Assembly (NCBI GenBank): GCA_900548185.1
Contig: URJJ01000004.1
Span: 2,130-66,129 of the forward strand
Reading direction: 5' to 3'
DNA from: an uncultured Opitutales bacterium
GTDB lineage: Bacteria; Verrucomicrobiota; Verrucomicrobiia; Opitutales; Intestinicryptomonadaceae
DNA: 64,000 nucleotides
Each line of letters opens with the position of its first letter. Positions within the stretch are counted from its first letter, which is position 1. The notes beneath the pieces are model-generated. The model saw nothing but the letters and a program-made list of their open reading frames with translations. It had not been told where the DNA came from and did no database searches. The position numbers and the translations under genes are program-made. Positions 42,045-62,585 of this stretch are shown here, piece after piece.

Positions 42045-43439
42045 CTACCGGCAGTCCACCACTTTTCCGGCGACGGCTGCCGCCGCCACCATCACGGGGC
42101 TCATCAGCATGGTGCGTCCCGTGGGGCTGCCCTGCCTGCCCTTGAAGTTGCGGTTTGAGGTGGAGGCGCAAAGCTCGTCGCCCCTGAGCTTGTCGGGGTT
42201 CATTGCAAGGCACATCGAGCATCCGGCGTGGCGCCACTCGAATCCGGCTTCGCGGAACACCCTGTCGAGGCCCTTTGATTCGGCGATTTTTTCCACAACC
42301 TGTGAGCCTGGGACGGCCAGCGCGCGCACTCCCGGGGCGACTTTTTTGCCCTTTAGAAACGCCGCCGCCTCTTCGAGGTCGGAGAGCCTGCCGTTTGTGC
42401 AGGAGCCTATGAAGGCGACGTTTATCGGCGTTCCCGCTATGGGGGCGCCCGCCTTGAACTTCATGTAGGCCAGCGCGTCCACCGCGTCCTTCTTCTGGGT
42501 TTCGTCGGCGATGTCGTCGGGGTTGGGGATGTTTTCGCCTATGAAGACCGCCTGGGACGGGTTGACGCCCCAGGTCACCGTGGGCTCAATTTCGGAGCCG
42601 TCGAATTCGACGGTGTCGTCGTATTTCGCATCGGCGTCCGAGGCGAAGCTTTTCCAGTATTCGACCGCCTTGTCCCATTCGGAGGCAGACGGCGCGTAGG
42701 GGCGGCCCTTCAGGTAGTCGAACGTGGTCTTGTCGGGGTTGATGTAGCCGACGCGCGCACCGCCTTCGATTGCCATGTTGCAGACCGTCATGCGGCCCTC
42801 CATTGACATGTCGTCAAAAACCTTCCCGCCGAATTCGTAGGCGTAGCCGAGGCCGCCGTTAACGCCGAGGCGGCGTATTATGTGGAGTGCGACGTCCTTG
42901 GGGTAGACGCCCCTGGAGAGCGAGCCGTTTACGTTTATGCGGCGCACCTTGAGCTTTTTGAAGGCGAGCGTCTGCGTGGCCAGGACGTTTCGCACCTGGC
43001 TGGTGCCTATGCCGAAAGCCACGGCGCCGAAGGCCCCGTGCGTCGCCGTGTGGGAGTCCCCGCAGGCGACTGTCATACCGGGGTGTATCACGCCCTGTTC
43101 GGGATGGACGATGTGTATCACGCCCTGCTTGCCGCCGGGGACGTCGAAGAAGGTTATGCCGTTTTCCGCGCAGTTTTTGCGCAGCTCAAGGAGCATTTCG
43201 TACCCGCGCGGGTCGGCGTAAGGCTCGGAGATGTCGTCGGTGGGGATTATGTGGTCCACCGTTGCGAACGTGCGCTGCGGGTACTTCACCTTGAGGCCCA
43301 GCGTGCGCATCATGCCGAACGCCTGCGGGCTCGTCACCTCGTGGAGGAGGTGGGTGCCCACAAACAACTGCGTCGAGCCGTCCGGCAGTTCGCGCACGGC
43401 GTGGCGCTCCCAGACTTTTTCAAAGAGTGTCTTTCCCAT
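42045..43439 (-). CDS. leuC: 3-isopropylmalate dehydratase large subunit (aconitase family)
   Basis: Aconitase-family Fe-S ligands and LeuC-type motifs are present ([35 protein letters not shown]). No leuD is adjacent. Confidence 0.8.
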
Positions 43440-49473: not shown

Positions 49474-50424
49474 ATGAAAACCTCATTTTTCAGGGCCGCA
49501 GCCGCGTTTTCGCTCCTGGCGCTATCCGCGCCTTTTGCGTGCGCCGCCTCCGAATCCTCTGGCAGGGCGACTGTCGCCATATACGACACGGCGGCGACAC
49601 CGGCGCTTTTGAAGGCGGCCACAGCCGCCGGAACGTCCGAAACCCTCGCCCGCATAATCGAGTCAATGGACGCCAATTTCGCCTCCGCTTTCAACGACAC
49701 CGGGCGCTTCTCGGTGCTTGCCCGCTCCGACTGGAAGGCCGTCCTCCGCGAGCAGGATTTCGGCGCCTCCGGAAATGTCGGCTCCGGAGCCGCGAAAATA
49801 GGGGCGGCCCTCGGTGCAAAATACGTGCTTGAAACCACCGTGGACGACTTCCAGGACTATGTGGAAAAGGCCGACTTCAAGCTCGTCGGAAAATCTGCGG
49901 AAAAGCGCATACTGCGCCTTGGTTGCATCGCAAAGCTCTACGACGCATCGACCGGCGCCATGGAAAACGCAGTGAACGTGACCCTCGACGAAGCCGACAT
50001 TTCCGAAATCCTCAGCTATTCCGAGCGCAGCGGAAGCCCCTCCGAGGCCCTTCCCGCGCGCCTCGCCCGCGCCATAGCTTCTGGCGTGGCCCGGAAAATG
50101 GCAGAGGACGCCTTCCCCGCGCGCGTGCTTTCAGTGCGCATGAACCAGGTGTCGATAAACCGGGGCGAGGCTTCGGGCATAAGGGTGGGGGAAGTTTACG
50201 ACGTCTATGCCATAGGCGACGTGCTGAAGGATCCGGATACCGGCGAAATCCTCGGCCGGGACGAGTTCCTGATAGGGCAGGTGCAGGTCGCCTCCGTAAT
50301 GCCAAAGTTCTCTAAGGCCTTCATCGTCCGCGACGCGGGCATCGAGGTGGGGGCGGTAGTGCGCAGGCAGGCTCCCGCCCGCAATGCCGGGGAAGATTCT
50401 GCGCTTCCGGCGAATTCTGATTAG
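49474..50424 (+). CDS. CsgG/HfaB-family lipoprotein (paralog 2)
   Basis: Signal/lipobox. CsgG core pattern VAIYDTAAT...GRFSVLARSDWKAVLREQDF...GAKYVLETTVDDF. Confidence 0.55.
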   Translation: MKTSFFRAAAAFSLLALSAPFACAASESSGRATVAIYDTAATPALLKAATAAGTSETLARIIESMDANFASAFNDTGRFSVLARSDWKAVLREQDFGASGNVGSGAAKIGAALGAKYVLETTVDDFQDYVEKADFKLVGKSAEKRILRLGCIAKLYDASTGAMENAVNVTLDEADISEILSYSERSGSPSEALPARLARAIASGVARKMAEDAFPARVLSVRMNQVSINRGEASGIRVGEVYDVYAIGDVLKDPDTGEILGRDEFLIGQVQVASVMPKFSKAFIVRDAGIEVGAVVRRQAPARNAGEDSALPANSD

Positions 50425-50440
50425 GCGGATGCTCCCATTC

Positions 50441-51919
50441 ATGGCAAAGACGCTCCCGGGCGCCGCGCTTTCGGCTGCGGCGTGCGCCCTGCTTTGCTCG
50501 TGCGCCACGCACGAGACAGAGAGCAGGAAAATGAGGGAGTCCTTCTACGCCGGAAACTATGCGGCAGCCGCGTCCGAGGCGTCGTCTATAGCCTCCTCCA
50601 AGTCGGGGTCGGGCGACGAGCTCGTGTGGCGTCTCGAATCCGGCGCGGCCTCTAGGTGGGCCGGGGACGCCGAGGGGAGCGCCCGGGAGTTTTCGAGGGC
50701 CTTCAGCCTCGTTGAGGGCTTCGACGCCTCCCCGGAAGTCAGCATATCCGACGAGGCCGGGGCGCTCATGACAAACCAGAGCTACCTCCCGTACAGGGCC
50801 TACTCCTACGACCGCATAATGATGGGGTGCTACCAGGCCCTGAACTGCATGTCCATGGGGGACATGGAGGGGGCTTCGGTCGCGCTTAAGCGGGTGGAAA
50901 ATTTCCAGGCCGACGCGGAGCGCAGGAACGCCGACAGGATTGAAAAGTCCCTCAAAAACGCATCGTCTTATTCCGGCAGGACGGTGGAGGGCGCCGACGG
51001 GAATGAGGCCTCCCTGTACGACGCCTCGCGCGCCTACGGGGACGTGTCTTTCGCATCATCGCTCAGGTCCGTTTACGGGGCGGGGGCGGCGGACGTTCCG
51101 AAGTCCCGCAGCCAGCTTGCCGAGTCGCTCAGGGGTATATACGTAAACCCCTTCGCCTACTGGCTTGACGGGCTCTTTTACATGGCGAACGCCTCGGACC
51201 TCTCTGAGGCTTCGCGGGCGGCCGACGACTTCAGGCTGGCGCTTGAAATGCAGCCTTCAAACCCTTACCTTGCCGAGGATCTCCGGGCCGCCGAAAACTT
51301 CGCCTCGACGGGCCGCATGGCCCCCGTCACCTACGTCATTTTTGAGACTGGATGCGCCCCCATACGCAGCCAGACGCGCATAGACATCCCCATGTTCGCA
51401 GCCACAAAGGACGTGCCTTACGTCGGCGTCAGCTTTCCGGTGCTCGCATACTCGCAGGCTTACGAGCCGCGCCTCAGCGTCCTTTCGTCGGGCGTGTTTT
51501 ACGTCCCCCAGCCGCTCGCCGACATGGACGCGATAATAACGCGGGAATTCAACTCCGACCTGCCCGTCGTTGTGGCAAAGACCCTCCTCTCGGCGGGGAC
51601 GAAGGCCGCGATTCAGTTCGGCATCCAGGAGGCGGCGAGGCAGGCCGACAATTCCGCCCTTCTGATTGCCGCGATGATTTCAGGCTCCGTATACCAGGCC
51701 GCGATGAACGACGCCGACCTGCGCACGTGGACGACCCTCCCCAAGGCGGTCTCCTACTCGCGCTTTCCGACTCCGGCCAACCGGAAGATACTTGTGGACT
51801 CCAATATCGAGGTCGAGCTTGACGACGCCCTCATAAACGTCGTCTGCGTGCGCCGGACTTTCCCCGGAACCCCGCTTTCGGTGCTGAAGTTTTCAATGAG
51901 AAAGGAAGAAAAAAAATGA
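50441..51919 (+). CDS. Large envelope lipoprotein of unknown function (492 aa)
   Basis: Lipobox LLCSCA. No recognisable catalytic motifs. Lies between the CsgG-like and YcfL/LpoB-like genes. Confidence 0.5.
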   Translation: MAKTLPGAALSAAACALLCSCATHETESRKMRESFYAGNYAAAASEASSIASSKSGSGDELVWRLESGAASRWAGDAEGSAREFSRAFSLVEGFDASPEVSISDEAGALMTNQSYLPYRAYSYDRIMMGCYQALNCMSMGDMEGASVALKRVENFQADAERRNADRIEKSLKNASSYSGRTVEGADGNEASLYDASRAYGDVSFASSLRSVYGAGAADVPKSRSQLAESLRGIYVNPFAYWLDGLFYMANASDLSEASRAADDFRLALEMQPSNPYLAEDLRAAENFASTGRMAPVTYVIFETGCAPIRSQTRIDIPMFAATKDVPYVGVSFPVLAYSQAYEPRLSVLSSGVFYVPQPLADMDAIITREFNSDLPVVVAKTLLSAGTKAAIQFGIQEAARQADNSALLIAAMISGSVYQAAMNDADLRTWTTLPKAVSYSRFPTPANRKILVDSNIEVELDDALINVVCVRRTFPGTPLSVLKFSMRKEEKK

Positions 51920-52329
51920 AAAGAGCGATTCTTTGCGCGGTGTGCGCGGCGGCCCTTGCCGGCTGCTCCACGGTGAATATGTCGGAACCGGCAAATCCCG
52001 AGGGCGTGAAAAAGATGGTTTCGGACAGGCGCGTGATAACGGACGGCGGCCTCGACGAAATTGTCTATATTGCCGGCATAAACGAGGCGCGCGCGCCCTC
52101 CGGCAACATCCGCATCCAGGCCGAGCTCGTAAACCGGACGACCGCTTACAGGCAGTTCAACTACCGCTTTGAGTGGCTCGACGAAAACGGCATGATGATT
52201 TCCTCCCCCGCGCCGGTGTGGGTTTCCTCTTTCATAGAGGGCGGGGAAAGCAAGTTCATCGCGGCGACCGCGCCGAGCGCGCGCGCGAAAGACTTCCGCC
52301 TGAAGCTCCTCGGCGACGTGCGCGACTGA
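51916..52329 (+). CDS. YcfL-like (DUF1425) small lipoprotein
   Basis: Lipobox LAGCS. About 135 aa. Beta-rich sequence similar to the E. coli YcfL family that neighbours lpoB. Confidence 0.6.
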   Translation: MKRAILCAVCAAALAGCSTVNMSEPANPEGVKKMVSDRRVITDGGLDEIVYIAGINEARAPSGNIRIQAELVNRTTAYRQFNYRFEWLDENGMMISSPAPVWVSSFIEGGESKFIAATAPSARAKDFRLKLLGDVRD

Positions 52330-52365
52330 CGCCTTGCGCCCTAAACAACGTAAACGGTTTTTTAT

Positions 52366-52929
52366 ATGAAAATACAACGCTATATCCCAATGGCCCTCTG
52401 CGCCGCGCTGCTTGCCGGATGCGAAACGGGCAACGCAAAATACACCGAATCGGGCGGCCCCCGCTCGCTCATTTCGACCGACAAGATAAACATCGCCGAC
52501 TGGAACAAGGCGGCCGACGCCCTCGTCGATTCGCTCATCTCTTCCGGGGCCTTTGAAAATTTCAAGTCAAAGCCGGTGATTATACAGGTCAGCCGCATTG
52601 TAAACCGCACCTCACAGAGGGTTGACACCGACCTTCTTACAAAGCGCATAACAATAGCCCTCAATAACTCCAAGCTTGCCATCGCAAAGACGGACGACCC
52701 CCTCTCAAAGGAGCTTGCCGAGTACCAGAATTTCGCGGGCGGCAAGGGCGGTGTGCCCGCAGCTTCGGCGGCGCTTTCGGGCAAGATAATTGAGGACCGC
52801 GAAAAGGTCGGGGGCAAGACTGAGGTCACCTACGTATTCCAGCTTTCCCTGAACGCGGGCGGCCTCGCCATATGGGAGGACCAGCGCCAGATTACAAAGC
52901 AGTCCGAAAAGACGTTTCTGGGGCTTTAG
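52366..52929 (+). CDS. lpoB: LpoB-like (COG3417) outer-membrane lipoprotein, putative penicillin-binding protein activator
   Basis: Lipobox LAGCE. Pattern WNKAADALVDSL...VNRTSQRVD...GKTEVTYVFQLSLNAGG...IWEDQRQI aligns with the E. coli LpoB core. Confidence 0.65.
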   Translation: MKIQRYIPMALCAALLAGCETGNAKYTESGGPRSLISTDKINIADWNKAADALVDSLISSGAFENFKSKPVIIQVSRIVNRTSQRVDTDLLTKRITIALNNSKLAIAKTDDPLSKELAEYQNFAGGKGGVPAASAALSGKIIEDREKVGGKTEVTYVFQLSLNAGGLAIWEDQRQITKQSEKTFLGL

Positions 52930-52996: not shown

Positions 52997-53405
52997 CGCC
53001 GCTTGGGGATGGCAGGTTCGTCCGGCGCTGCGGGGGGGAAGGATGAATCTCTCAGGCAAAAAGGCGCTCCGCATTCCCTGCGCCTGCCCGCATTTCGCCC
53101 CGTTTGTAAAACGGACGCATTAGCCGCTTTCTTTATAGCCGCCTGCCCCGTGCCGGGCCTGTCGGATGCGCAAGGGGGCGCCGCAGCCTTTTTTAAACTT
53201 AAAAACGTTTGATTTTTTGCCTCAAGCGGCGCATAATATTTTTCGATGAAAGAAAGTGGGGCGCAGGCCGTTTTGCGGGCGGGTTCCGGATTTCTTTGTC
53301 CCGCCCTGTGCCTGCATTCCCGCTTGCGCCCCTTCCGCTCCGGTTTCCCGGCGCCACGGGGGCGCGCCCGGTCTCAACACCAAACTCCAAAGAAGGGCAA
53401 ATGTC

Positions 53406-54827
53406 ATGAAATATCTAAAAAGGGCGGCCGCAGTTGCATGCGGGGCGGCTTTGTGCGTCCAGGCCACAGCCGAACAGCAGGAATTTTTCATAGAGAACAT
53501 CTATGACGAAACGGGCGAAATGCCGAGGATGCGGGCGGGCGAATATTACGACTGCCTGGAATGCGGGGCGGAAAACATTTCCGGAATGACTTTTGAGCAG
53601 TGGTTTCAGGGGCCCCACGCAACTGCGAACTGGTTCGGCGCAAGGTCTTATTTGGAGGATAACGGCATCGTCCCCGTATTCACCTACCTTGGCAACTTTG
53701 CGGCAAACCCTTCCGGAGGCGCCGCCCGGGGGGCCACTGTGACGAGCTCCGTACAGTTCGGCGCGGGTTTCGACCTGTACAAGATGACAAAGATTGAGGC
53801 CCTGAAAAACTGGTCTCTTGTGAACACCTGGGTTTGGCGCTTCGGCACTTCGCTCACGCAAAAGTATGTGGATAACGCCTTCAGCGTCCAGCAGAATTTC
53901 GGGAGCCAGACTCTCAACATGCAGTCGCTCTTCCTGTCATATTCGACCCCGCTCGGCGAGGACGGCGGGTCGTTTATGATGAAGTTCGGGCGGATGGCCG
54001 CCGGGGACAATTTCATGACGAAGCCGATTTACTGGCTCTACATGTCAAACGCCATGGACGGCAACCCTATCGGGGTTTTCAAACAGACCAAATTTTCCGC
54101 CTATCCCGGGAGCACTTGGGGCGCCATGTTTGAAGTTTCAGCACCGCAGGGCTACTATTTCAAGGCGGGCGTCTACCAGATAAACTCCGACCAACAGGAC
54201 TCGCGGCACGGCCTTGATTTTTCTATGAAAAACGCGCTCGGAGTGAACGTGAACGCCGAGGCCGGATGGAACATAAACCACGATACGAGCGGGCGCTCTC
54301 CCGGCAACATATCCGTCGGCATTGTCGCAGACTGGTACCGCGCCCCGCACCTCGACGACCCCTCGAAATACTCCCACTTCAACCAGACCCTCTACGCCCA
54401 GGCCGACTACATGGTGCTCAATCTCGGCTTTCCCGACCGCAGCCGCCCGTCCGTCATAAGGCGTTCAAACTCGAGCGAATCCTACCGCGACCTGCGCGGA
54501 ATTGTGCTCTGGGGCGTCGTGCAGTACGATCCTTCCGAGAACCTCGCCGAAATGCCGCTTTTCTTAAACGGCGGCGCGCTCTTCAATGCGCCGTTTCCGT
54601 CCCGCCCCGACGATGTTCTGTGCTTCGGCGTGGCGTACGGGAAATATTCCGGAAGCCTCGCCCAGCCGAGGAAAAATTCATATGAACTCGTCTTTGAGCT
54701 GAACTACAAGGTGCAGGTGAACCGATTTTTCTTCGCCCAGCCTGACATCCAGTATGTCGTAAACACCAAGGGCGGGGAGCATCCCGACGCGCTGGTTCTC
54801 GGCATGCAGTTTGGCATGGGCTTTTGA
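53406..54827 (+). CDS. OprB-family carbohydrate-selective porin
   Basis: Signal peptide. The typical OprB C-terminus (QPDIQYVVNTKGGEHPDALVLGMQFGMGF) ends in a terminal Phe. Confidence 0.8.
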   Translation: MKYLKRAAAVACGAALCVQATAEQQEFFIENIYDETGEMPRMRAGEYYDCLECGAENISGMTFEQWFQGPHATANWFGARSYLEDNGIVPVFTYLGNFAANPSGGAARGATVTSSVQFGAGFDLYKMTKIEALKNWSLVNTWVWRFGTSLTQKYVDNAFSVQQNFGSQTLNMQSLFLSYSTPLGEDGGSFMMKFGRMAAGDNFMTKPIYWLYMSNAMDGNPIGVFKQTKFSAYPGSTWGAMFEVSAPQGYYFKAGVYQINSDQQDSRHGLDFSMKNALGVNVNAEAGWNINHDTSGRSPGNISVGIVADWYRAPHLDDPSKYSHFNQTLYAQADYMVLNLGFPDRSRPSVIRRSNSSESYRDLRGIVLWGVVQYDPSENLAEMPLFLNGGALFNAPFPSRPDDVLCFGVAYGKYSGSLAQPRKNSYELVFELNYKVQVNRFFFAQPDIQYVVNTKGGEHPDALVLGMQFGMGF

Positions 54828-56102: not shown

Positions 56103-58541
56103 CTACTTTGAAAGCAGGCGCAGAAAGTAAAGGCCCGGCGTCGGCGTGCCTTTGTCGGCGTCAAACCTCACAATGAGCGTCTTTGAGGAGCCCAGAAGGG
56201 CGTCGGGCACGGGAATTTCCATGTCGAAAAATCCTTGGGCCTGGGCGGGCGGTTCGAGGATGAAATCCTTGAGCTTTTTTCCGTTTACGGATATTGTGCA
56301 TTTTCTTCCCCTGTCACCTGCGAAGAAGCGGCACATGATGCTTAGCCCCTTCTTGCCCCGGGGGTCCAGCTCGTAGCTGAACCATCCGCCCGTCCAGGCG
56401 TCCACATAGCGTTCGCCTGCGAATTCGCCCGACCCGCATGGGCCCTTGCGCTCATGGCCGGCGTCGCTCTGCTGCTCCCCGGTTGAGACGAAGTCAAGCG
56501 TGCGCTTTTCAAGGGCCTGCTTTTCGCGCTCGATTTCGCGCATCTTCTCCCTGTCGGCGGCCCATTTTTTTGCGGACGGCTGGTAGAAATATATCATGTA
56601 GCGCGCCTCGTGGATTGTGAAGAAGGGCTGGAGGACGAGCCCGGCGTATTTTTTGTCGGCGTAAAATTCCGGCGCGATTTTGAAGCGCAGGCTTCCGGTG
56701 TCTGCGGGCCTCGCAGATTTCAGGATTTTTTCGCGGTCTCCTATGAGTATGGGGGCTTCGGTGAGGTCTAGCTGCCTCCCTAGCGACGGGGCGTGGTCCA
56801 TGCGCCCCTCTTCCGCGAATTGGCCCTTGAGGTCTTCGGTTCCGACTATGGCGCCGAGCGCGACGGGCCCGAAGGCGAAGGCTACGTAGTCTTCGTTTGT
56901 GGGGCAGGGCAGGAGCCTCATCGACATAGGCAGGAATATCTCGATTCTGTCGCCCTTCTTCCAGTCCCTGCGCAGCCTCGCGTATCCGTCGGGGCCGGCC
57001 TTTTCCGCAGCCGGGGCGCCGTTTATTTTTAGCCTGAAGCCGTCTTCGCACCATTGGGGGCGCCTTATGGCCATTTCAAAGCTTCCGGGGCTGTCGATGG
57101 TTATGAGCGACTTTTGCGAGTAGGGGAACTCCGTCGCCTGCGTCAGGGCGAACCTGCCGTTTTTCAGGCGGCTTGGAATGAAGAGGTTGACATACAGCGT
57201 GCCGCCGTCGTGCGTGTAGGCGAAATGGGCGTACTTTGAATGGTTTTCCATGCCGGTGCCAACGCAGCACCACATGGCCTTGTTGACCTGCGAATACATC
57301 CTGTAATGGCGCGGGCGCACGCTGGTGAAATAGACGTATCCGCCGGTATTGGGGTTTTGGGTGGAGAGGATGTGGTTTATCATGGCCTTCTCGTAGAAGT
57401 CGGCGTACTTCGAGAGGTGGCTTTTGGAAAACAGCCCTTCGGAGAGCTTCAGCATGTTGTAGGTGTTGCAGCTTTCCGGGCCGTTCGGATTCTCGATGTA
57501 GCGCATGCCCTGGCCGGCGTGGAGGAAATGCTCGTCCACGGAATTGCCGCCGAAGGAGAGGGTCCTGTTTCGGGCCACGTCCTCCCAGAAGTTTTCTGCG
57601 GCCGTCCGGTATTTTTCCATGAGCGCGGCGTCTCCGGGCAGGGCGTCAACGTCGGCGATGCGGGCGAAGCCGACGTATTTGGGAACCTGCGTATTCGCGT
57701 GCATTCCGCTCAAAAATTCCGCATTCGGAGACTGCATGCCGTCTATCATGACGCGGTGCGAAAACCGCTTGGCCGCGTCCAGGTATTTTTTGTCGCCGAA
57801 CATCAGGTATGCGTCCGCATAGACCTCGTTCATGCCGCCGTGCTCCATGTTTAAGAGCCCCTGGAGCTGCGCGTCGTCTAGGTTTGAAACGAGGCCTATC
57901 CCCCAGTCGCACAGCTTGCGGAAGCACTCCCGGGCCTTTTGGTTCCCCGCATAGGCGTATGCGTCGCGGAAGCCTGCAAATATTTTGTGCATGACGTATA
58001 GCGGAACCGCCGCCGAAAATTTCCCCTCGACATTCCACGAAGGCACCCCCGAATATATCTGCGTCCAAAGCTCATTGCAGGGTATCCCGCCGACGTATCC
58101 GCGCAGGCCGTTTTCGTCCCCGTCAAACGCGCTCTGGGCCTCTGCCATTTTGTCGACCATGTAGTCGAGGCGCTTCAGGAGCTTTTCCCTGGTTTCTTCA
58201 TCCCGGGAGGCCGAGTATGCCATGGCGAGGGCGGAGAGGTAGTGGCCGCCTATGTGGCCGTCCAGCCTGAAGCCGTCGGAGCCCCAGTTGGGAAAATTCG
58301 GATGCAGCTTTTCCCATTCTTCAAATCCGGCCTGGCGCATGAAGGGTGTGAGCAGCCTGTCCGCGTCGTATTGGAGAAGGACTTCGCAGTTTAGCTCCAT
58401 TGCCCTCTTTAGCGGGCCCTCCAGAAGCTCGACTTCCGAGAGGTCGAAGTGCTGCGGGTAGAGCATGCTCTGGGCGTTGAGCGAGGCGGCCGCGGCGGCG
58501 GCCGAGAATGCGGCGGCGAGGATTTTCGCGATGTTTTTCAT
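56103..58541 (-). CDS. Glycoside hydrolase family 127 (DUF1680; beta-L-arabinofuranosidase-like)
   Basis: Signal peptide. About 810 aa with the six-hairpin architecture and Cys-rich motifs typical of GH127 (HypBA1-like), e.g. WCCVGTG. Confidence 0.8.
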   Translation of the reverse strand: MKNIAKILAAAFSAAAAAASLNAQSMLYPQHFDLSEVELLEGPLKRAMELNCEVLLQYDADRLLTPFMRQAGFEEWEKLHPNFPNWGSDGFRLDGHIGGHYLSALAMAYSASRDEETREKLLKRLDYMVDKMAEAQSAFDGDENGLRGYVGGIPCNELWTQIYSGVPSWNVEGKFSAAVPLYVMHKIFAGFRDAYAYAGNQKARECFRKLCDWGIGLVSNLDDAQLQGLLNMEHGGMNEVYADAYLMFGDKKYLDAAKRFSHRVMIDGMQSPNAEFLSGMHANTQVPKYVGFARIADVDALPGDAALMEKYRTAAENFWEDVARNRTLSFGGNSVDEHFLHAGQGMRYIENPNGPESCNTYNMLKLSEGLFSKSHLSKYADFYEKAMINHILSTQNPNTGGYVYFTSVRPRHYRMYSQVNKAMWCCVGTGMENHSKYAHFAYTHDGGTLYVNLFIPSRLKNGRFALTQATEFPYSQKSLITIDSPGSFEMAIRRPQWCEDGFRLKINGAPAAEKAGPDGYARLRRDWKKGDRIEIFLPMSMRLLPCPTNEDYVAFAFGPVALGAIVGTEDLKGQFAEEGRMDHAPSLGRQLDLTEAPILIGDREKILKSARPADTGSLRFKIAPEFYADKKYAGLVLQPFFTIHEARYMIYFYQPSAKKWAADREKMREIEREKQALEKRTLDFVSTGEQQSDAGHERKGPCGSGEFAGERYVDAWTGGWFSYELDPRGKKGLSIMCRFFAGDRGRKCTISVNGKKLKDFILEPPAQAQGFFDMEIPVPDALLGSSKTLIVRFDADKGTPTPGLYFLRLLSK

Positions 58542-58699
58542 GGTCGTTTGCGGTTGGCCGTCGTCGGACGGTTTTTTGTTCAAACGGCTTTGTTGACGAA
58601 AATTCCGCAAAGGTCAAAACCTCCCGGATTTGACAGTAAAATGCGGCGCCTCCGGGGTGCTGCACGGGGACGTTTCCGGAGGGCGCGGACGGATGGGGG

Positions 58700-59677
58700 C
58701 TAGTCGAAGTGCCTCTTTGCGAATTCGATTTTTTCAGCGGGGGTGGGGTTTGCCCCCTCCGGCAGGGACTCGATGAGCTTCAGGCGCGAGAGGAGCCCCT
58801 GCCCGTTTGCTATCTGGATTGCAAGCCCCGGCCTGGCGTTCAGCTCAAGTATGAGCGGCCCGAGGTTTTTGTCGGTTGCGATGTCGGCGCCGAAGTACCC
58901 GAGGGGCGTCATTTCGGCGCACCTTGCCGCAAGCGCAAGATGGCCGTCCCAGTGGGGCACCCTCAGCTCGGAGAACGGGGCTCCGGTGTCGGGATGGCGG
59001 GTCACTTCCCGGTTGTGCTGGGCCGCAAAAAGCGGCCGCCCGTCCCGGATTGAAAGCCCGACGCCTATCGCGCCCTGGTGGAGGTTCGCCCTGCCGTCGG
59101 ATTTCCGCGTGGCGAGCCTTATCATGGACATCACAGGATAGCCCTTGAAAACTATCACGCGCACGTCCGGGACGCCCTGGAAGCTGAATCTCGCGTAAAC
59201 GTCGGAGAAATTTATGCACCTTTCAAACAGGGCGTAGTCGGGCTGGCCGCCGAGGCTGTAAAGGCCGCTCAGGATGTTTGAAATATGCTCGTAGATGAAT
59301 GAGAAGTCGCAGGAGGAGCCGTTCGGCTTGTAAAATGTTTCCCCCTCCTTGCGCGTGATTACCAGTATTCCCCTGCCGCCGCTGCCGTGGCCCGGCTTTA
59401 TGACGAAATCCGGGACGGGGTCTATGAGCGAGCGGAAATCCTTCACCTCGTACTGGCGGCTTATTGAGCCGATGAGCTCGGCCGTGCGCACGCCGTACTT
59501 TATGGCGAGGGTCTTGGTGCGCAGCTTGTCGTCGACGTCGGGGTAGTCGCTCCTTTTGTTGTAGGGCATGATGTAGGCGTGGTTTCGCCTGTTCATGCCG
59601 AGGACGCCCGCCGAGGCAAGCTCCCCCGGGGTCGCCAGTTCCGGCAGGGAAAAAGGGAGTCTCAGGGGAAGTCTCAT
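58700..59677 (-). CDS. RimK-like ATP-grasp 'alpha-L-glutamate ligase-related' protein
   Basis: ATP-grasp motifs (FVIKPGHGSGGRGI, LILELNARPGLA). The start ATG overlaps the stop of the upstream 7TM gene (ATGA). Confidence 0.8.
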   Translation of the reverse strand: MRLPLRLPFSLPELATPGELASAGVLGMNRRNHAYIMPYNKRSDYPDVDDKLRTKTLAIKYGVRTAELIGSISRQYEVKDFRSLIDPVPDFVIKPGHGSGGRGILVITRKEGETFYKPNGSSCDFSFIYEHISNILSGLYSLGGQPDYALFERCINFSDVYARFSFQGVPDVRVIVFKGYPVMSMIRLATRKSDGRANLHQGAIGVGLSIRDGRPLFAAQHNREVTRHPDTGAPFSELRVPHWDGHLALAARCAEMTPLGYFGADIATDKNLGPLILELNARPGLAIQIANGQGLLSRLKLIESLPEGANPTPAEKIEFAKRHFD

Positions 59678-61209
59678 TTTTTCGCAAGGGGGCTGAATCG
59701 GACGAGTTCCGTGAGGCGGTAGCCCGTGTAGGTTCCAAGCAGCAGCACCACCGCGAGTATCGCAAGGTTCAGCTCCGAGAACGTATAGAGCAGGTACTGA
59801 AGGTAGGCGTTGCAAAGGAGCGCGTAGCATACCACCGCCGTGACAAGGCTCGCCGCGAGCTGTTTTAGGGCGTTGGCTGCCCCGTCCTCCTCCCACGTGG
59901 TCGAGGCCCTCTCGATTGTCCATGCGATGATGATGAGCGGGAAGAACGTGACTCCCATGAAATCCGGAAGCTTGAGCATGTTGGCCCCGATGGTTATCGC
60001 CTGCATGAGCAGTATCACAACCACCACCACGGCCGATATGCGGGGAACCATCAGCAGGTTCAGCCGCGTGAGCCAGGCCCTTATCCCCAGGCCCGCCGCA
60101 AGTATGATGACAAAGCTCGCAAGCCCCGGGACGAGCTTCATTTCAAGAAACGACATGGCGATTAATACCGGCATGAAAGTCCCCATCGTCTGTATGCCGA
60201 CCACGTTGCGCGCAAGCACTATGAGAAGTATGGCAAGCGGCAGCAGGGCGAGCCTTTTGAACATGTTCTGCTCCGAAGGCGGGAGCGAAAACATTGAAAA
60301 GCCGGAAAACTCCGCATCGCCTATGGCGGCGGCGCGTATCAGGTTCAGCTTTGCGGCCCCCGCAGGTATCTTCGTCACGGAAAATTTTATGGACGAGTTC
60401 GACGCCTGCGAAACCTCAAAAAGCGGGGAGCCGCCGCGCTGCAGCACCGCGAAATCCGCCGGCATGCCCTCGGTTCCGGTATTGGAGGCGAATGCGTGCC
60501 ACGAGCCCCCGTAGTAGGCGTCCAGCATGTTTGAAACCTGCTGTTGGCGGCCTTTCTGGTCGAGATAGACTCCCCTTATCAGGCGGGCCGGAATGCCGCG
60601 CCTTGCGAGGACCGAGACCGCCGCCTCAAGCGTAGCCGAAGCCCCTGCATGGGGGGAGAACGCCCGCTTTTCGTTAGGCGTCATTGCGCCGAGGGCCTTC
60701 AGGATTTCGGGAATCAGCTTTTCGGGCGGCGCGTCGCCCTTTGGGTCCAGCCTGTCAAGGAGCGTGGAGCACGCCTTTTTTACGTCGTCTGAGGCGTTTG
60801 GCAGGGAGCCGTCCGGAGGGGGCGGGATTTCCTCGCCCTTCACCCCTGCGGGGATTATGCTGAAGCGGTACGAGACCGTCCGCCTGGCGCCCGAGCCGTC
60901 TGCGGGGGAGGAGAAGCCCGCGACGAGCCTTCCGCCGCTTTTTTCCGTCTTGAAGCGGTCCCCGCCCGCAGGGTCTGGGATGAAGTAGGAGCCGGAGGAG
61001 AATTCCGGCAGGGATATGGTTATGTGCGCGTCTTTCCCCTTCTCGGGGTCGAAGGACACGGAGGCGTCAGCCTGGTAGTAGAAGGAGGTGTCCCCGCTTA
61101 AGCTGAAGCCGAAATACCTGACTTTCACGAAAGTCATGGCGGCCGCGACCGCCAGGAGGATTCCGACTAGCCAATACAATGTGCGCCTGTGCTGGCGGTG
61201 GTCCGACAT
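59674..61209 (-). CDS. 7TM-fused inactive transglutaminase-like membrane protein
   Basis: An N-terminal TM is followed by an extracytoplasmic domain of roughly 300 aa and then 7 predicted C-terminal TM helices. This architecture matches the family that co-occurs with RimK-like ligases. Confidence 0.7.
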   Translation of the reverse strand: MSDHRQHRRTLYWLVGILLAVAAAMTFVKVRYFGFSLSGDTSFYYQADASVSFDPEKGKDAHITISLPEFSSGSYFIPDPAGGDRFKTEKSGGRLVAGFSSPADGSGARRTVSYRFSIIPAGVKGEEIPPPPDGSLPNASDDVKKACSTLLDRLDPKGDAPPEKLIPEILKALGAMTPNEKRAFSPHAGASATLEAAVSVLARRGIPARLIRGVYLDQKGRQQQVSNMLDAYYGGSWHAFASNTGTEGMPADFAVLQRGGSPLFEVSQASNSSIKFSVTKIPAGAAKLNLIRAAAIGDAEFSGFSMFSLPPSEQNMFKRLALLPLAILLIVLARNVVGIQTMGTFMPVLIAMSFLEMKLVPGLASFVIILAAGLGIRAWLTRLNLLMVPRISAVVVVVILLMQAITIGANMLKLPDFMGVTFFPLIIIAWTIERASTTWEEDGAANALKQLAASLVTAVVCYALLCNAYLQYLLYTFSELNLAILAVVLLLGTYTGYRLTELVRFSPLAKK

Positions 61210-61219
61210 GGTTTTGGGC

Positions 61220-61807
61220 TTATAGTATGTTGTGGCGCGACGGGTCGACCATTGCCGTCCCGCTTATGACGTTGCGGCCTATGAGCACGGGGTATTCAAA
61301 CCCGCCGCGGTCGGTGAGGGTGAACTCCCTGTCCATTGTCATGTGGCCCATCCTGAAAGTGAGTATTACCGAATAGCGCATCTGGTCGGGCGCGCCGTGG
61401 CGCTTTATGGGCACGGTGCGCTCAACCGGAAGCTCGTAGTTTTTCACCTGCCCGTCCGCCCTGGAGCGTATTTCAAACGAGACCCACTTCTTGCCGTCGC
61501 GCTCGAAATTCCTGATGTTTTTTGCGTCGATTGAGCTGGTCGTGGCCCCCGTGTCGATTCTCGCCTCAAACGGCGCCGAAAATCCCGGCAGGTAAACCGC
61601 CTCGGTTTCGCCTATGACGCCAAGGGGGTAGTCGGAGCGCGGCGCCGCGGGCGCCGCCGCCCCGTCCGGGGAGGCTCCACTGGCCGGGTCCGGGCAGCAT
61701 CCGAAGGCGCACAGCGCAAACGCCGGCAGAATGAGCGGCGTAATGCTGCGGGCGGCCTTTTTCAAAGTTTCAGCGCGCGCGTTGTTTGCGGAATTGCTGT
61801 TTGTCAT
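61220..61807 (-). CDS. Retropepsin-like aspartic peptidase ('ATP-dependent zinc protease' / RimB-like family)
   Basis: Signal peptide. IDTGATTSSI contains the D-T-G-A aspartic protease motif. Length (195 aa) and position are typical of the RimK-associated protease. Confidence 0.7.
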   Translation of the reverse strand: MTNSNSANNARAETLKKAARSITPLILPAFALCAFGCCPDPASGASPDGAAAPAAPRSDYPLGVIGETEAVYLPGFSAPFEARIDTGATTSSIDAKNIRNFERDGKKWVSFEIRSRADGQVKNYELPVERTVPIKRHGAPDQMRYSVILTFRMGHMTMDREFTLTDRGGFEYPVLIGRNVISGTAMVDPSRHNIL

Positions 61808-61883
61808 ATGGATATTTTATAAATATTGCCGGGCCCCGGCGCAGGGCTGCGTCCCCCTGGCCGAAGAGCGCCGCGCCTCCGGC

Positions 61884-62585
61884 TCAGCGCCGCTGGGAGA
61901 GGAGCACGCGCAGTATGTAAAAGTAAAGCATAACTACCGACGAAAAGAGGCCGAGGGCGGCCGCGACATACTGGTCTCCGCGGTAGTTTTTGAATATGGC
62001 GTTTGTCTCGTAGAGAATCGACGCGCTCGCGAGGGCTATCATCGCCGCAGAAAACCACAGGCCGAGGTCGAAGCCGAAAATCACGGCGCAGACGATTATT
62101 CCCAAAGAAACCGGAAATCCGATTGCCAGAACCGAGCGCAGGAAGGAGAAGTCGCTGCCCGTGAATATCACCGTGCAGGTTAGCCCCACCGTCATTGCGC
62201 CTGTGAGGACGGCCGCCTGGATTATTGTGTCGGGCGCTATCTGGTTTGCGAGTATGAGAAGCGGCATCATTACGACCGCCATCGCCCCGACGTACAGCGC
62301 GAGGCCCGCATACTGGACGCCCAGCGACTTTGGGCTCTGCGACATCGACGAGGCGAGCCACGACACGCCTACAAGGGCCAGCATCACAATGAGCCAGTTG
62401 CGCCCCTGCGTCATCGCCGCCGCAAGCTCCAGGGCCGGGGGCCACGAGAGCAGGAAGGCTTCCAGCCCGGCGAATGCGGCGACCGCCAGGGCCAGGTTCA
62501 GATATGTCTTTTTGACAAACGAGGCCCGCTCTTCGGAATTGCGGAGCGCCGTCTGGCTTTGATAGTAGCTTGCTGTTTCGTTCAT
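61884..62585 (-). CDS. Bax inhibitor-1/YccA-family membrane protein
   Basis: 233 aa with seven hydrophobic helices. The N-terminus ERASFVKKTYLNLALAV is typical of the BI-1/UPF0005 family. Confidence 0.85.
   Translation of the reverse strand: MNETASYYQSQTALRNSEERASFVKKTYLNLALAVAAFAGLEAFLLSWPPALELAAAMTQGRNWLIVMLALVGVSWLASSMSQSPKSLGVQYAGLALYVGAMAVVMMPLLILANQIAPDTIIQAAVLTGAMTVGLTCTVIFTGSDFSFLRSVLAIGFPVSLGIIVCAVIFGFDLGLWFSAAMIALASASILYETNAIFKNYRGDQYVAAALGLFSSVVMLYFYILRVLLSQRR

Follow-up and report, generated by a model that had tools for sequence, protein, structure and literature searches.

Here we describe a three-gene cassette on the minus strand of a 64-kb window, the whole stretch of DNA analysed, from the metagenome-assembled genome (MAG) of an uncultured Opitutales bacterium; it is almost certainly a homologue of the rloABC operon, carried in this case by a gut member of the Verrucomicrobiota. 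In positions of the window, which are used throughout, the cassette consists of an rloA-like protease gene (61807..61220), an rloB-like gene for a membrane protein with seven transmembrane helices (7TM; 61209..59674) and an rloC-like gene for an ATP-grasp ligase (59677..58700), whose products we refer to as RloA, RloB and RloC. We arrive at this identity because of the hidden Markov model (HMM) matches of the three proteins, the match of RloA to the structures 9g58 and 9g59, the triad-less transglutaminase-like fold of RloB, the TIGR02291 match and RimK-type motifs of RloC, the order of the genes and the conservation of their junctions. An earlier, sequence-only reading of this DNA held that no biochemical function had been assigned to such a cassette. 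This is outdated, as Lormand et al. have since given the operon the name rloABC (bioRxiv, March 2025; mBio, June 2025) and partly characterised it in Pseudomonas, in work that also reported crystal structures of RloA (PMC11957051, PMC12239564).

In P. aeruginosa, where rloABC corresponds to PA14_41690/41710/41730, three redundant secreted RloA retropepsins are jointly needed for growth without salt, biofilm formation, resistance to cell-wall antibiotics and a normal cell shape, and the lethality of the triple rloA deletion is suppressed by deletion of either rloB or rloC (PMC12239564). These latter two genes have been tied genetically to osmotic tolerance, biofilm, antibiotic resistance and cell shape (PMC12239564, PMC11957051). 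The Pseudomonas RloA cleaves runs of at least eight glutamates in vitro, and its residues K46, R92, R114 and R137 matter both in vitro and in vivo (PMC11957051). Furthermore, a transposon screen in Shewanella linked an RloB homologue to the production of membrane vesicles (PMC12096838).

The tight packing of the cassette, as the sequence-only reading had described it, is exact in all its coordinates. Directly read from the sequence, the rloA-like gene (195 aa, TAA stop) is separated from the rloB-like gene (511 aa, TGA stop) by a 10-nt spacer, 'gcccaaaacc' (61219..61210, minus strand), and the stop codon of the latter overlaps the start codon of the rloC-like gene (325 aa) in an ATGA at 59677..59674, likewise on the minus strand. 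A 407-aa open reading frame (ORF) that starts at 59923 is an in-frame upstream extension of rloC lying inside rloB; public gene calls on the identical contig JAXUIN010000011.1 (GCA_037229245.1) place the rloC start at the 325-aa version. The start of rloA is ambiguous within 61763-61807: the ATG at 61807 yields 195 aa, and a TTG at 61765 yields a protein of 181 aa beginning MKKAARS, with a more canonical signal-peptide n-region. In other assemblies the same protein is called at 181 aa.

RloA matches PF05618 with an E value of 4.4e-33 over residues 64-194; the title of this Pfam family is 'putative ATP-dependent zinc protease', and in newer releases RimB-like. NCBI now holds models for RloA, RloB and RimB, and the best NCBIfam matches of the protein are RloA3, RloA2, RloA and RimB, all of them under the curated cutoffs, with RloA3 scoring highest (86.8 bits versus a cutoff of 210). 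Its closest solved relatives are the PDB entries 9g58 and 9g59 (E ~1e-15), which are presumably the RloA crystal structures of Lormand et al. 2025, and also Legionella 2pma, named an RloA-like protein in the same work (PMC12239564, preprint PMC11957051). The catalytic motif D85-T-G-A88, encoded at 61544..61555 on the minus strand, is invariant in 68 of 68 homologues. Moreover, when the protein is aligned to 9g58, the Pseudomonas poly-Glu contacts K46, R92, R114 and R137 correspond to R83, R130, R144 and R167. The last two of these are invariant (68/68), position 83 is Arg or Lys in all 68 homologues, and position 130 is Arg or Lys in 66 of them.

The sequence-only reading had called this protein a secreted aspartic peptidase with a DTGA motif. 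The family, the motif and the export signal all stand, and only the type of signal has to be refined, from a plain signal peptide to one of lipoprotein type. As judged from hydropathy and the 68 aligned homologues from related loci, residues 1 to ~37, and among them 16-37 in particular, form a predicted signal peptide that closes with a lipobox (AFG-C37), followed by ~25 Pro/Ala-rich residues and then by the protease domain (64-194). The lipobox Cys is found at the position of C37 in nearly all of the homologues. The mature domain has no Cys, as is the case in 59 of the 68 (the window protein included), and the Cys pair that forms the Pseudomonas disulfide is missing, with an Arg at the position aligned to C102 of 9g58. 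As such, RloA is predicted to be a lipid-anchored protein without a disulfide.

For the second protein, the sequence-only reading proposed a large exofacial domain plus seven transmembrane helices. This layout is recovered, with the addition of an N-terminal anchor helix (1 + 7): hydropathy and an AlphaFold2 model (24-sequence alignment, mean predicted local distance difference test score, pLDDT, of 79) agree on an N-terminal anchor, an ectodomain spanning residues ~36-310 (60280..61104, minus strand) and a 7TM module at residues 311-511 (59677..60279, minus strand). RloB matches PF14402 (7TM_transglut) at 1.7e-83 over residues 262-508, and scores 222 bits against a cutoff of 900 with the NCBIfam RloB model. 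Within its N-terminal 300 residues, PF14400 gets no further than E = 0.029 and PF01841 no further than 0.086, and PDB sequences searched with a profile of the RloB family gave noise only (E >= 0.2). In the predicted structure, the periplasmic ectodomain has a mixed beta/alpha, transglutaminase-like fold, with which Foldseek agrees (E = 1.8e-6, probability 1.0); among its structural neighbours are PeiW and PeiP, which are pseudomurein endoisopeptidases, and enzymes of the LapG type. Whether the Cys-His-Asp triad is lost had been raised as a check on the sequence-only reading, and the triad is indeed absent: in 24 aligned family members, Cys stays below 30% in every ectodomain column and no His or Asp is conserved, while C147, the only ectodomain Cys of the window protein, and H238 are not conserved either. 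On this model, we take the ectodomain to be a catalytically dead transglutaminase-like fold.

The two halves of RloB are conserved to very different degrees, with a mean identity of 62% in the 7TM module versus 28% in the ectodomain. Invariant polar and charged residues of the module include R334, N335, T344, R377, N384, R390, E433, R434, E441, E479, R498, E501 and R504. Because the module is so much better conserved and carries invariant charges, it would be expected to act as a transport or catalytic core rather than as a passive anchor. A predicted cytoplasmic loop (residues 430-443, WTIERASxxWEEDG) and the C-terminal tail (residues 492-508, with GTYTGYRLTELxRF) are conserved as well.

RloC was held to be an ATP-grasp ligase related to RimK, and the motifs bear this out: the ATP-grasp signatures KPGHGSGGRG, DVRVIVF, RANLHQGA and ELNARPGL are present, and the stretches that align with RimK within the gene (58700..59677, minus strand) are VIKPGHGSGGRG and the latter three. 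The protein scores above the cutoff of TIGR02291, 'alpha-L-glutamate ligase-like' (400 versus 314 bits), and matches PF14397 at 2.1e-85, a family that Pfam labels 'sugar-transfer associated ATP-grasp'. The cutoffs of the models for RimK proper are not reached (TIGR00768, 32.7 bits versus 143.4; PRK10446, 15.9 versus 331), the alignment with RimK is limited to the core motifs of the ATP-grasp fold, and a profile of 18 RloC-family members finds the RimK structures 5zct and 4iwx in the PDB at E ~1.5e-6. The same profile weakly matches the tubulin polyglutamylase TTLL7 (E = 1.4e-3), a hit that fits glutamate-ligase chemistry and is too weak to serve as evidence. RloC has no transmembrane segment or signal peptide and is thus predicted to be cytoplasmic.

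A scan of 185,579 species genomes with patterns from the RloB alignment yielded 486 confirmed relatives, and the best 80 of these 486 were taken for work on the loci. These 80 form three groups: Opitutales from the gut, with 57-62% identity and with Coraliomargarita sp. CAG:312 and Ca. Merdousia among them; Lentisphaeria, Victivallis included (52-60%); and gut Alphaproteobacteria (36-40%). As determined by tblastn with RloA and RloC, the order A-B-C is kept in 79 of the 80 related loci, and the remaining locus ends at a contig edge. The junctions are kept too: the B-C junction measures -4, -1 or 0 to +4 nt in 67 of 81 loci (-4 in 21, the others in 46), and the A-B gap is at most 30 nt in most of the related loci. 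The same trio, with overlapping genes, is found on plasmid 5 of Legionella adelaidensis (locus L084, 3537-8758). Therefore, homologues of the three genes do co-occur in other genomes, as the sequence-only reading expected of a true cassette. On the Legionella plasmid, the protease gene is annotated as 'RimK/LysX family protein', an apparent mis-annotation, and two convergent genes for C1-family (papain-like) peptidases follow the rloABC copy.

Genes flanking the cassette are not conserved among loci of the Planctomycetes, Verrucomicrobia and Chlamydiae (PVC) group, and a search for a fourth conserved gene beside the cassette found none among these loci. In a neighbour-joining tree of RloB, built without bootstrap, the window protein is sister to a clade of gut Opitutales, this group is nested within the diversity of Victivallis and other Lentisphaeria, and phyla are mixed. 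Together, the unconserved flanks, the plasmid copy and the mixing of phyla support an accessory and horizontally mobile module, and the claim that the cassette is accessory rather than core is upheld on the same grounds. An exhaustive HMMER scan of 1.84 billion representatives returned 1,544 clusters (50% identity) at E <= 1e-3, with 385 at <= 1e-30; nearly all RloB clusters are ~510 aa long, indicating a family of modest size and uniform architecture. Of the RloB hits in the study that described the operon, 96% were proteobacterial (PMC12239564).

Two neighbours were considered as conserved partners and set aside, being confined to gut alphaproteobacterial loci, where they may reflect shared ancestry. 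One is a gene for a cyclophilin-type peptidyl-prolyl isomerase (~201 aa) that follows rloC on the same strand in 48 such loci (e.g. L028:4039-4644) and is absent from the window locus and from the PVC loci. The other is a distantly OprB-like gene upstream of rloA, again on the same strand, in 36 loci (e.g. L029:131-1402). The window has an OprB-family porin gene of its own at 53256-54827 on the plus strand, ~4 kb from the cassette. That OprB-type genes lie near the cassette both here and in Alphaproteobacteria could be coincidence or could reflect a shared envelope context.

The LeuC protein encoded in the window (42045..43439) shares 79-86% identity with proteins of Opitutales bacteria, which places the host in the Verrucomicrobiota. 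In the window itself, the cassette lies between a carbohydrate-active enzyme gene and a BI-1 family gene, as had been noted: the former is a GH127-type glycoside hydrolase gene (56103..58610, minus strand) and the latter encodes a Bax1-I/BI-1 family membrane protein (61884..62585, minus strand), beyond which a cation-efflux gene follows on the plus strand. The BI-1 gene and rloA are 76 bp apart, and this interval holds a GC-rich hairpin, GCCGGGGCCCGGC, at 61828-61840 (minus strand), followed by an AT-rich stretch, and this hairpin may separate two transcription units. A scan for promoters and terminators gave site counts no better than in shuffled sequence, and only the weak hairpin between the BI-1 gene and rloA; the promoter part used sigma-70 consensus patterns, which may not apply to Verrucomicrobia. 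A weak hit of the search for paralogues, at 49759-50253 upstream of another 511-aa ORF, was rejected, as it belongs to an unrelated CsgG-like/LpoB-like lipoprotein cluster. This cluster of four envelope lipoprotein genes (49474-52929, plus strand) encodes a CsgG-like protein (316 aa), an unassigned protein of 511 aa, a DUF1425 (YcfL-like) protein and an LpoB-like protein of the peptidoglycan-synthase-activator type; it has no sequence relation to the cassette and is also envelope-directed.

So how might the three proteins work together? From its family membership and the chemistry of RimK, which makes free poly-alpha-L-glutamate and is stimulated in this by RimB (PMC11957791), cytoplasmic RloC would use ATP to polymerise L-glutamate into an alpha-linked oligo- or poly-glutamate, either free or on a primer. 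The polar 7TM module of RloB would then take this polymer across the inner membrane or hold it there, and the dead transglutaminase-like ectodomain would bind and present it in the periplasm as a peptide-binding platform. A dimeric RloA, which a lipid anchor and flexible linker would hold at a membrane, would chop the poly-Glu into short fragments and thereby keep the length or amount of the polymer in check; we infer this trimming because the catalytic and Glu-binding residues are conserved here, the activity itself having been shown for the Pseudomonas enzyme. A fixed polyanion in the periplasm may influence the osmotic balance of the envelope and cell-wall homeostasis, and would be toxic at low osmolarity if left untrimmed. 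An untrimmed periplasmic polyanion would thus lead to hypo-osmotic lethality that is suppressed by loss of rloB or rloC, which fits the Pseudomonas genetics. The compartments speak for such a scheme, with RloC predicted to be cytoplasmic and RloA exported with a lipobox, and junctions of 10 nt and -4 nt are too tight for the cassette to accommodate a gene for a precursor peptide. We give this specific division of labour, synthesis by RloC, export by RloB and trimming by RloA, close to an even chance and perhaps a little under it.

Several points weigh against it. The cell-shape and beta-lactam phenotypes of Pseudomonas fit a peptidoglycan-linked target equally well (PMC12239564). The similarity of RloC to RimK is remote (33 versus 143 bits for TIGR00768; E values of 1e-3 to 1e-6 with RimK structures in the PDB), so its amino-acid specificity could differ, and the 'sugar-transfer associated' label of its family hints at a glycan-linked acceptor. 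The AlphaFold2 single-sequence model of RloC, with a pLDDT of 34.6, is unusable. Furthermore, RloA and RloB score below the narrow equivalog and exception models of NCBI, which indicates homology without strict orthology to the Pseudomonas proteins; the function may have drifted, and the loss of the disulfide points in the same direction.

Of the other explanations, a cycle of protein polyglutamylation survives best, though we consider it unlikely. RloC would here add glutamate tails to a specific envelope or membrane protein, possibly by way of RloB, and RloA would remove them in the periplasm, making the system a reversible post-translational switch with no free polymer. The analogy with RimK and RimB acting on RpsF is direct (PMC11957791, PMC12239564), the protease and ligase are paralogous to these two enzymes, and RloA is able to cut poly-Glu inside proteins as well as at their C-termini in vitro (PMC11957051). 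However, with the ligase in the cytoplasm and the protease in the periplasm, a tagged protein would need to be exported with its acidic tail in place. The cytoplasmic C-terminus of RloB does not provide a conserved Glu-Glu acceptor, as the aligned tails end in AKK, VKE or VKS, and the PVC loci offer no conserved neighbouring gene that might encode the substrate. Moreover, among the periplasmic proteins of P. aeruginosa, Lormand et al. found none for which the genome encodes a stretch of poly-Glu (PMC11957051).

Less probable again is a modification of the cell wall or of a glycan, in which RloC would attach Glu or another amino acid to a precursor of peptidoglycan, to a stem peptide or to a glycan at the surface, the dead transglutaminase/NlpC-like domain of RloB would bind a muropeptide, and RloA would remove the modification. 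The cell-shape defects and the sensitivity to cell-wall antibiotics of the Pseudomonas mutants (PMC12239564) speak for this, as do the kinship of the ectodomain model with PeiW, PeiP and LapG-type enzymes and the Pfam label of the RloC family. The LpoB-like lipoprotein cluster, 6 kb away in the window, could be added to these, although it is unlinked in relatives. What makes the idea improbable is the protease, the channel of which suits acidic runs of at least eight Glu and not single-residue changes to a stem peptide (PMC11957051), with the residues concerned conserved here; in addition, the cassette has no conserved neighbour of the mur, glycosyltransferase or flippase kind.

The combination of an extracellular ligand-binding domain with a 7TM module resembles bacterial 7TM receptors, and the conserved cytoplasmic loop and C-terminal tail of RloB could dock RloC. 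RloB may therefore be pictured as a sensor that binds a periplasmic ligand, made or destroyed by RloA, and controls RloC allosterically, with nothing being exported. We consider this very improbable, given that deletions of rloB and rloC suppress alike (PMC12239564), as would be expected of a linear pathway of production more than of a sensor and its effector with a periplasmic protease acting upstream of them. The ectodomain, the would-be sensor, is also the least conserved part of the protein at 28%, and an invariant charged membrane core is more typical of transporters and enzymes.

ATP-grasp ligases are also known to make ribosomally synthesised and post-translationally modified peptides (RiPPs) such as microviridins and omega-ester peptides, and a ligase, a protease and a membrane protein would superficially fit a pathway in which a precursor peptide is modified by the first, matured by the second and exported by the third. 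Such a pathway is highly improbable here, as the cassette contains no small ORF (10 nt and -4 nt) and comparably close junctions are seen across 81 loci, the flanking genes lack conservation, RloC falls in the RimK-related branch of amino-acid ligases and not with the microviridin type, and the protease is specific for poly-Glu (PMC11957051). The peptide tagging or peptide-derived metabolite proposed in the sequence-only reading likewise stays conjectural, as the cassette cannot hold a gene for a precursor peptide.

Returning to poly-glutamate synthesis, export and trimming, a broader picture may be sketched, which we put forward tentatively and hold to be doubtful as a whole. In it, the cassette would make and export a new envelope polymer, a periplasmic or surface poly-alpha-glutamate, with a lipid-anchored retropepsin determining its length; the self-contained module would have been transferred horizontally among bacteria of the gut, both PVC members (Opitutales and Victivallales) and Alphaproteobacteria, as an adaptation to osmotic stress or stress on the envelope in this habitat, and RloB would found a new class of peptide-polymer exporters. 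The interest of rloABC lies in its control, in Pseudomonas, of hypo-osmotic survival, biofilm formation, beta-lactam sensitivity and cell shape. While this type of operon was already known, its host here (an Opitutales MAG), a lipid-anchored RloA without a disulfide and the varying flanks are new; this form of RloA and the strongly diverged ectodomain are traits of the clade. The module is intact outside the Proteobacteria, in Verrucomicrobiota and Lentisphaerota of the human and animal gut, and what is conserved in it are the protease residues that bind poly-Glu and, in RloB, the polar core within the membrane. These conserved residues and the traits of the clade can guide the choice of residues and orthologues for biochemistry; the window adds little to the mechanism and opens no new question of its own. 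The residual interest is in the chemistry of RloB and RloC, which the window alone does not make more testable.

With Pseudomonas rloABC, the cassette shares its three protein families, the order and orientation of their genes and the closeness of the junctions, along with a DTGA protease with an export signal and poly-Glu-binding basic residues, a predicted dead transglutaminase-like ectodomain joined to a 7TM module, and a cytoplasmic TIGR02291 ligase. The two differ in their host, a gammaproteobacterium there versus a gut Opitutales MAG here, and in RloA, which in the window is predicted to be a lipoprotein, has a Pro/Ala linker and lacks the disulfide Cys pair. The RloB ectodomain is too diverged for PF14400, and the 64-kb window holds no extra rloA or rimBK, a tblastn search of it for rimK, rimB and a second rloA returning nothing at E < 1. 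The RimK/RimB pair (RimABK), which acts on ribosomal protein S6, likewise combines an ATP-grasp alpha-L-glutamate ligase with a retropepsin-like poly-Glu endopeptidase, and the ATP-grasp motifs are shared; a genetic interaction between rimB and rloA was not found in Pseudomonas (PMC11957051). In contrast to our cassette, where the protease is exported and a 7TM gene lies between the two, RimK and RimB are both cytoplasmic and have no membrane partner, and the RloC of the window fails the RimK family cutoffs (TIGR00768, PRK10446).

Iyer, Abhiman, Burroughs and Aravind reportedly predicted systems of an ATP-grasp enzyme, a 7TM inactive-transglutaminase protein and a protease in 2009 (Mol Biosyst 5:1636; cited in PMC12096838 and PMC12239564), and are said to be the source of PF14397, PF14400 and PF14402. 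Theirs was prediction only, and the gene association is the same as here; the statement that the combination had been predicted by comparative genomics thus agrees with this work, and PF14402 and PF14397 match RloB and RloC strongly. The poly-gamma-glutamate systems PgsBCA and CapBCA, with their depolymerases CapD and PgdS, combine membrane-associated synthesis and export of an anionic envelope polymer with a hydrolase that sets its length. Their proteins are unrelated to those of the cassette, with a MurD-like PgsB and the gamma-glutamyl transferase CapD, as opposed to an ATP-grasp ligase and a retropepsin, and their linkage is gamma, versus the presumed alpha linkage here. In the osmoregulated periplasmic glucans, a periplasmic polyanion is tied to survival at low osmolarity, an analogy that has been discussed for the Pseudomonas operon (PMC11957051). 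The likeness of the cassette to both would be one of logic only, that is, a functional analogy.

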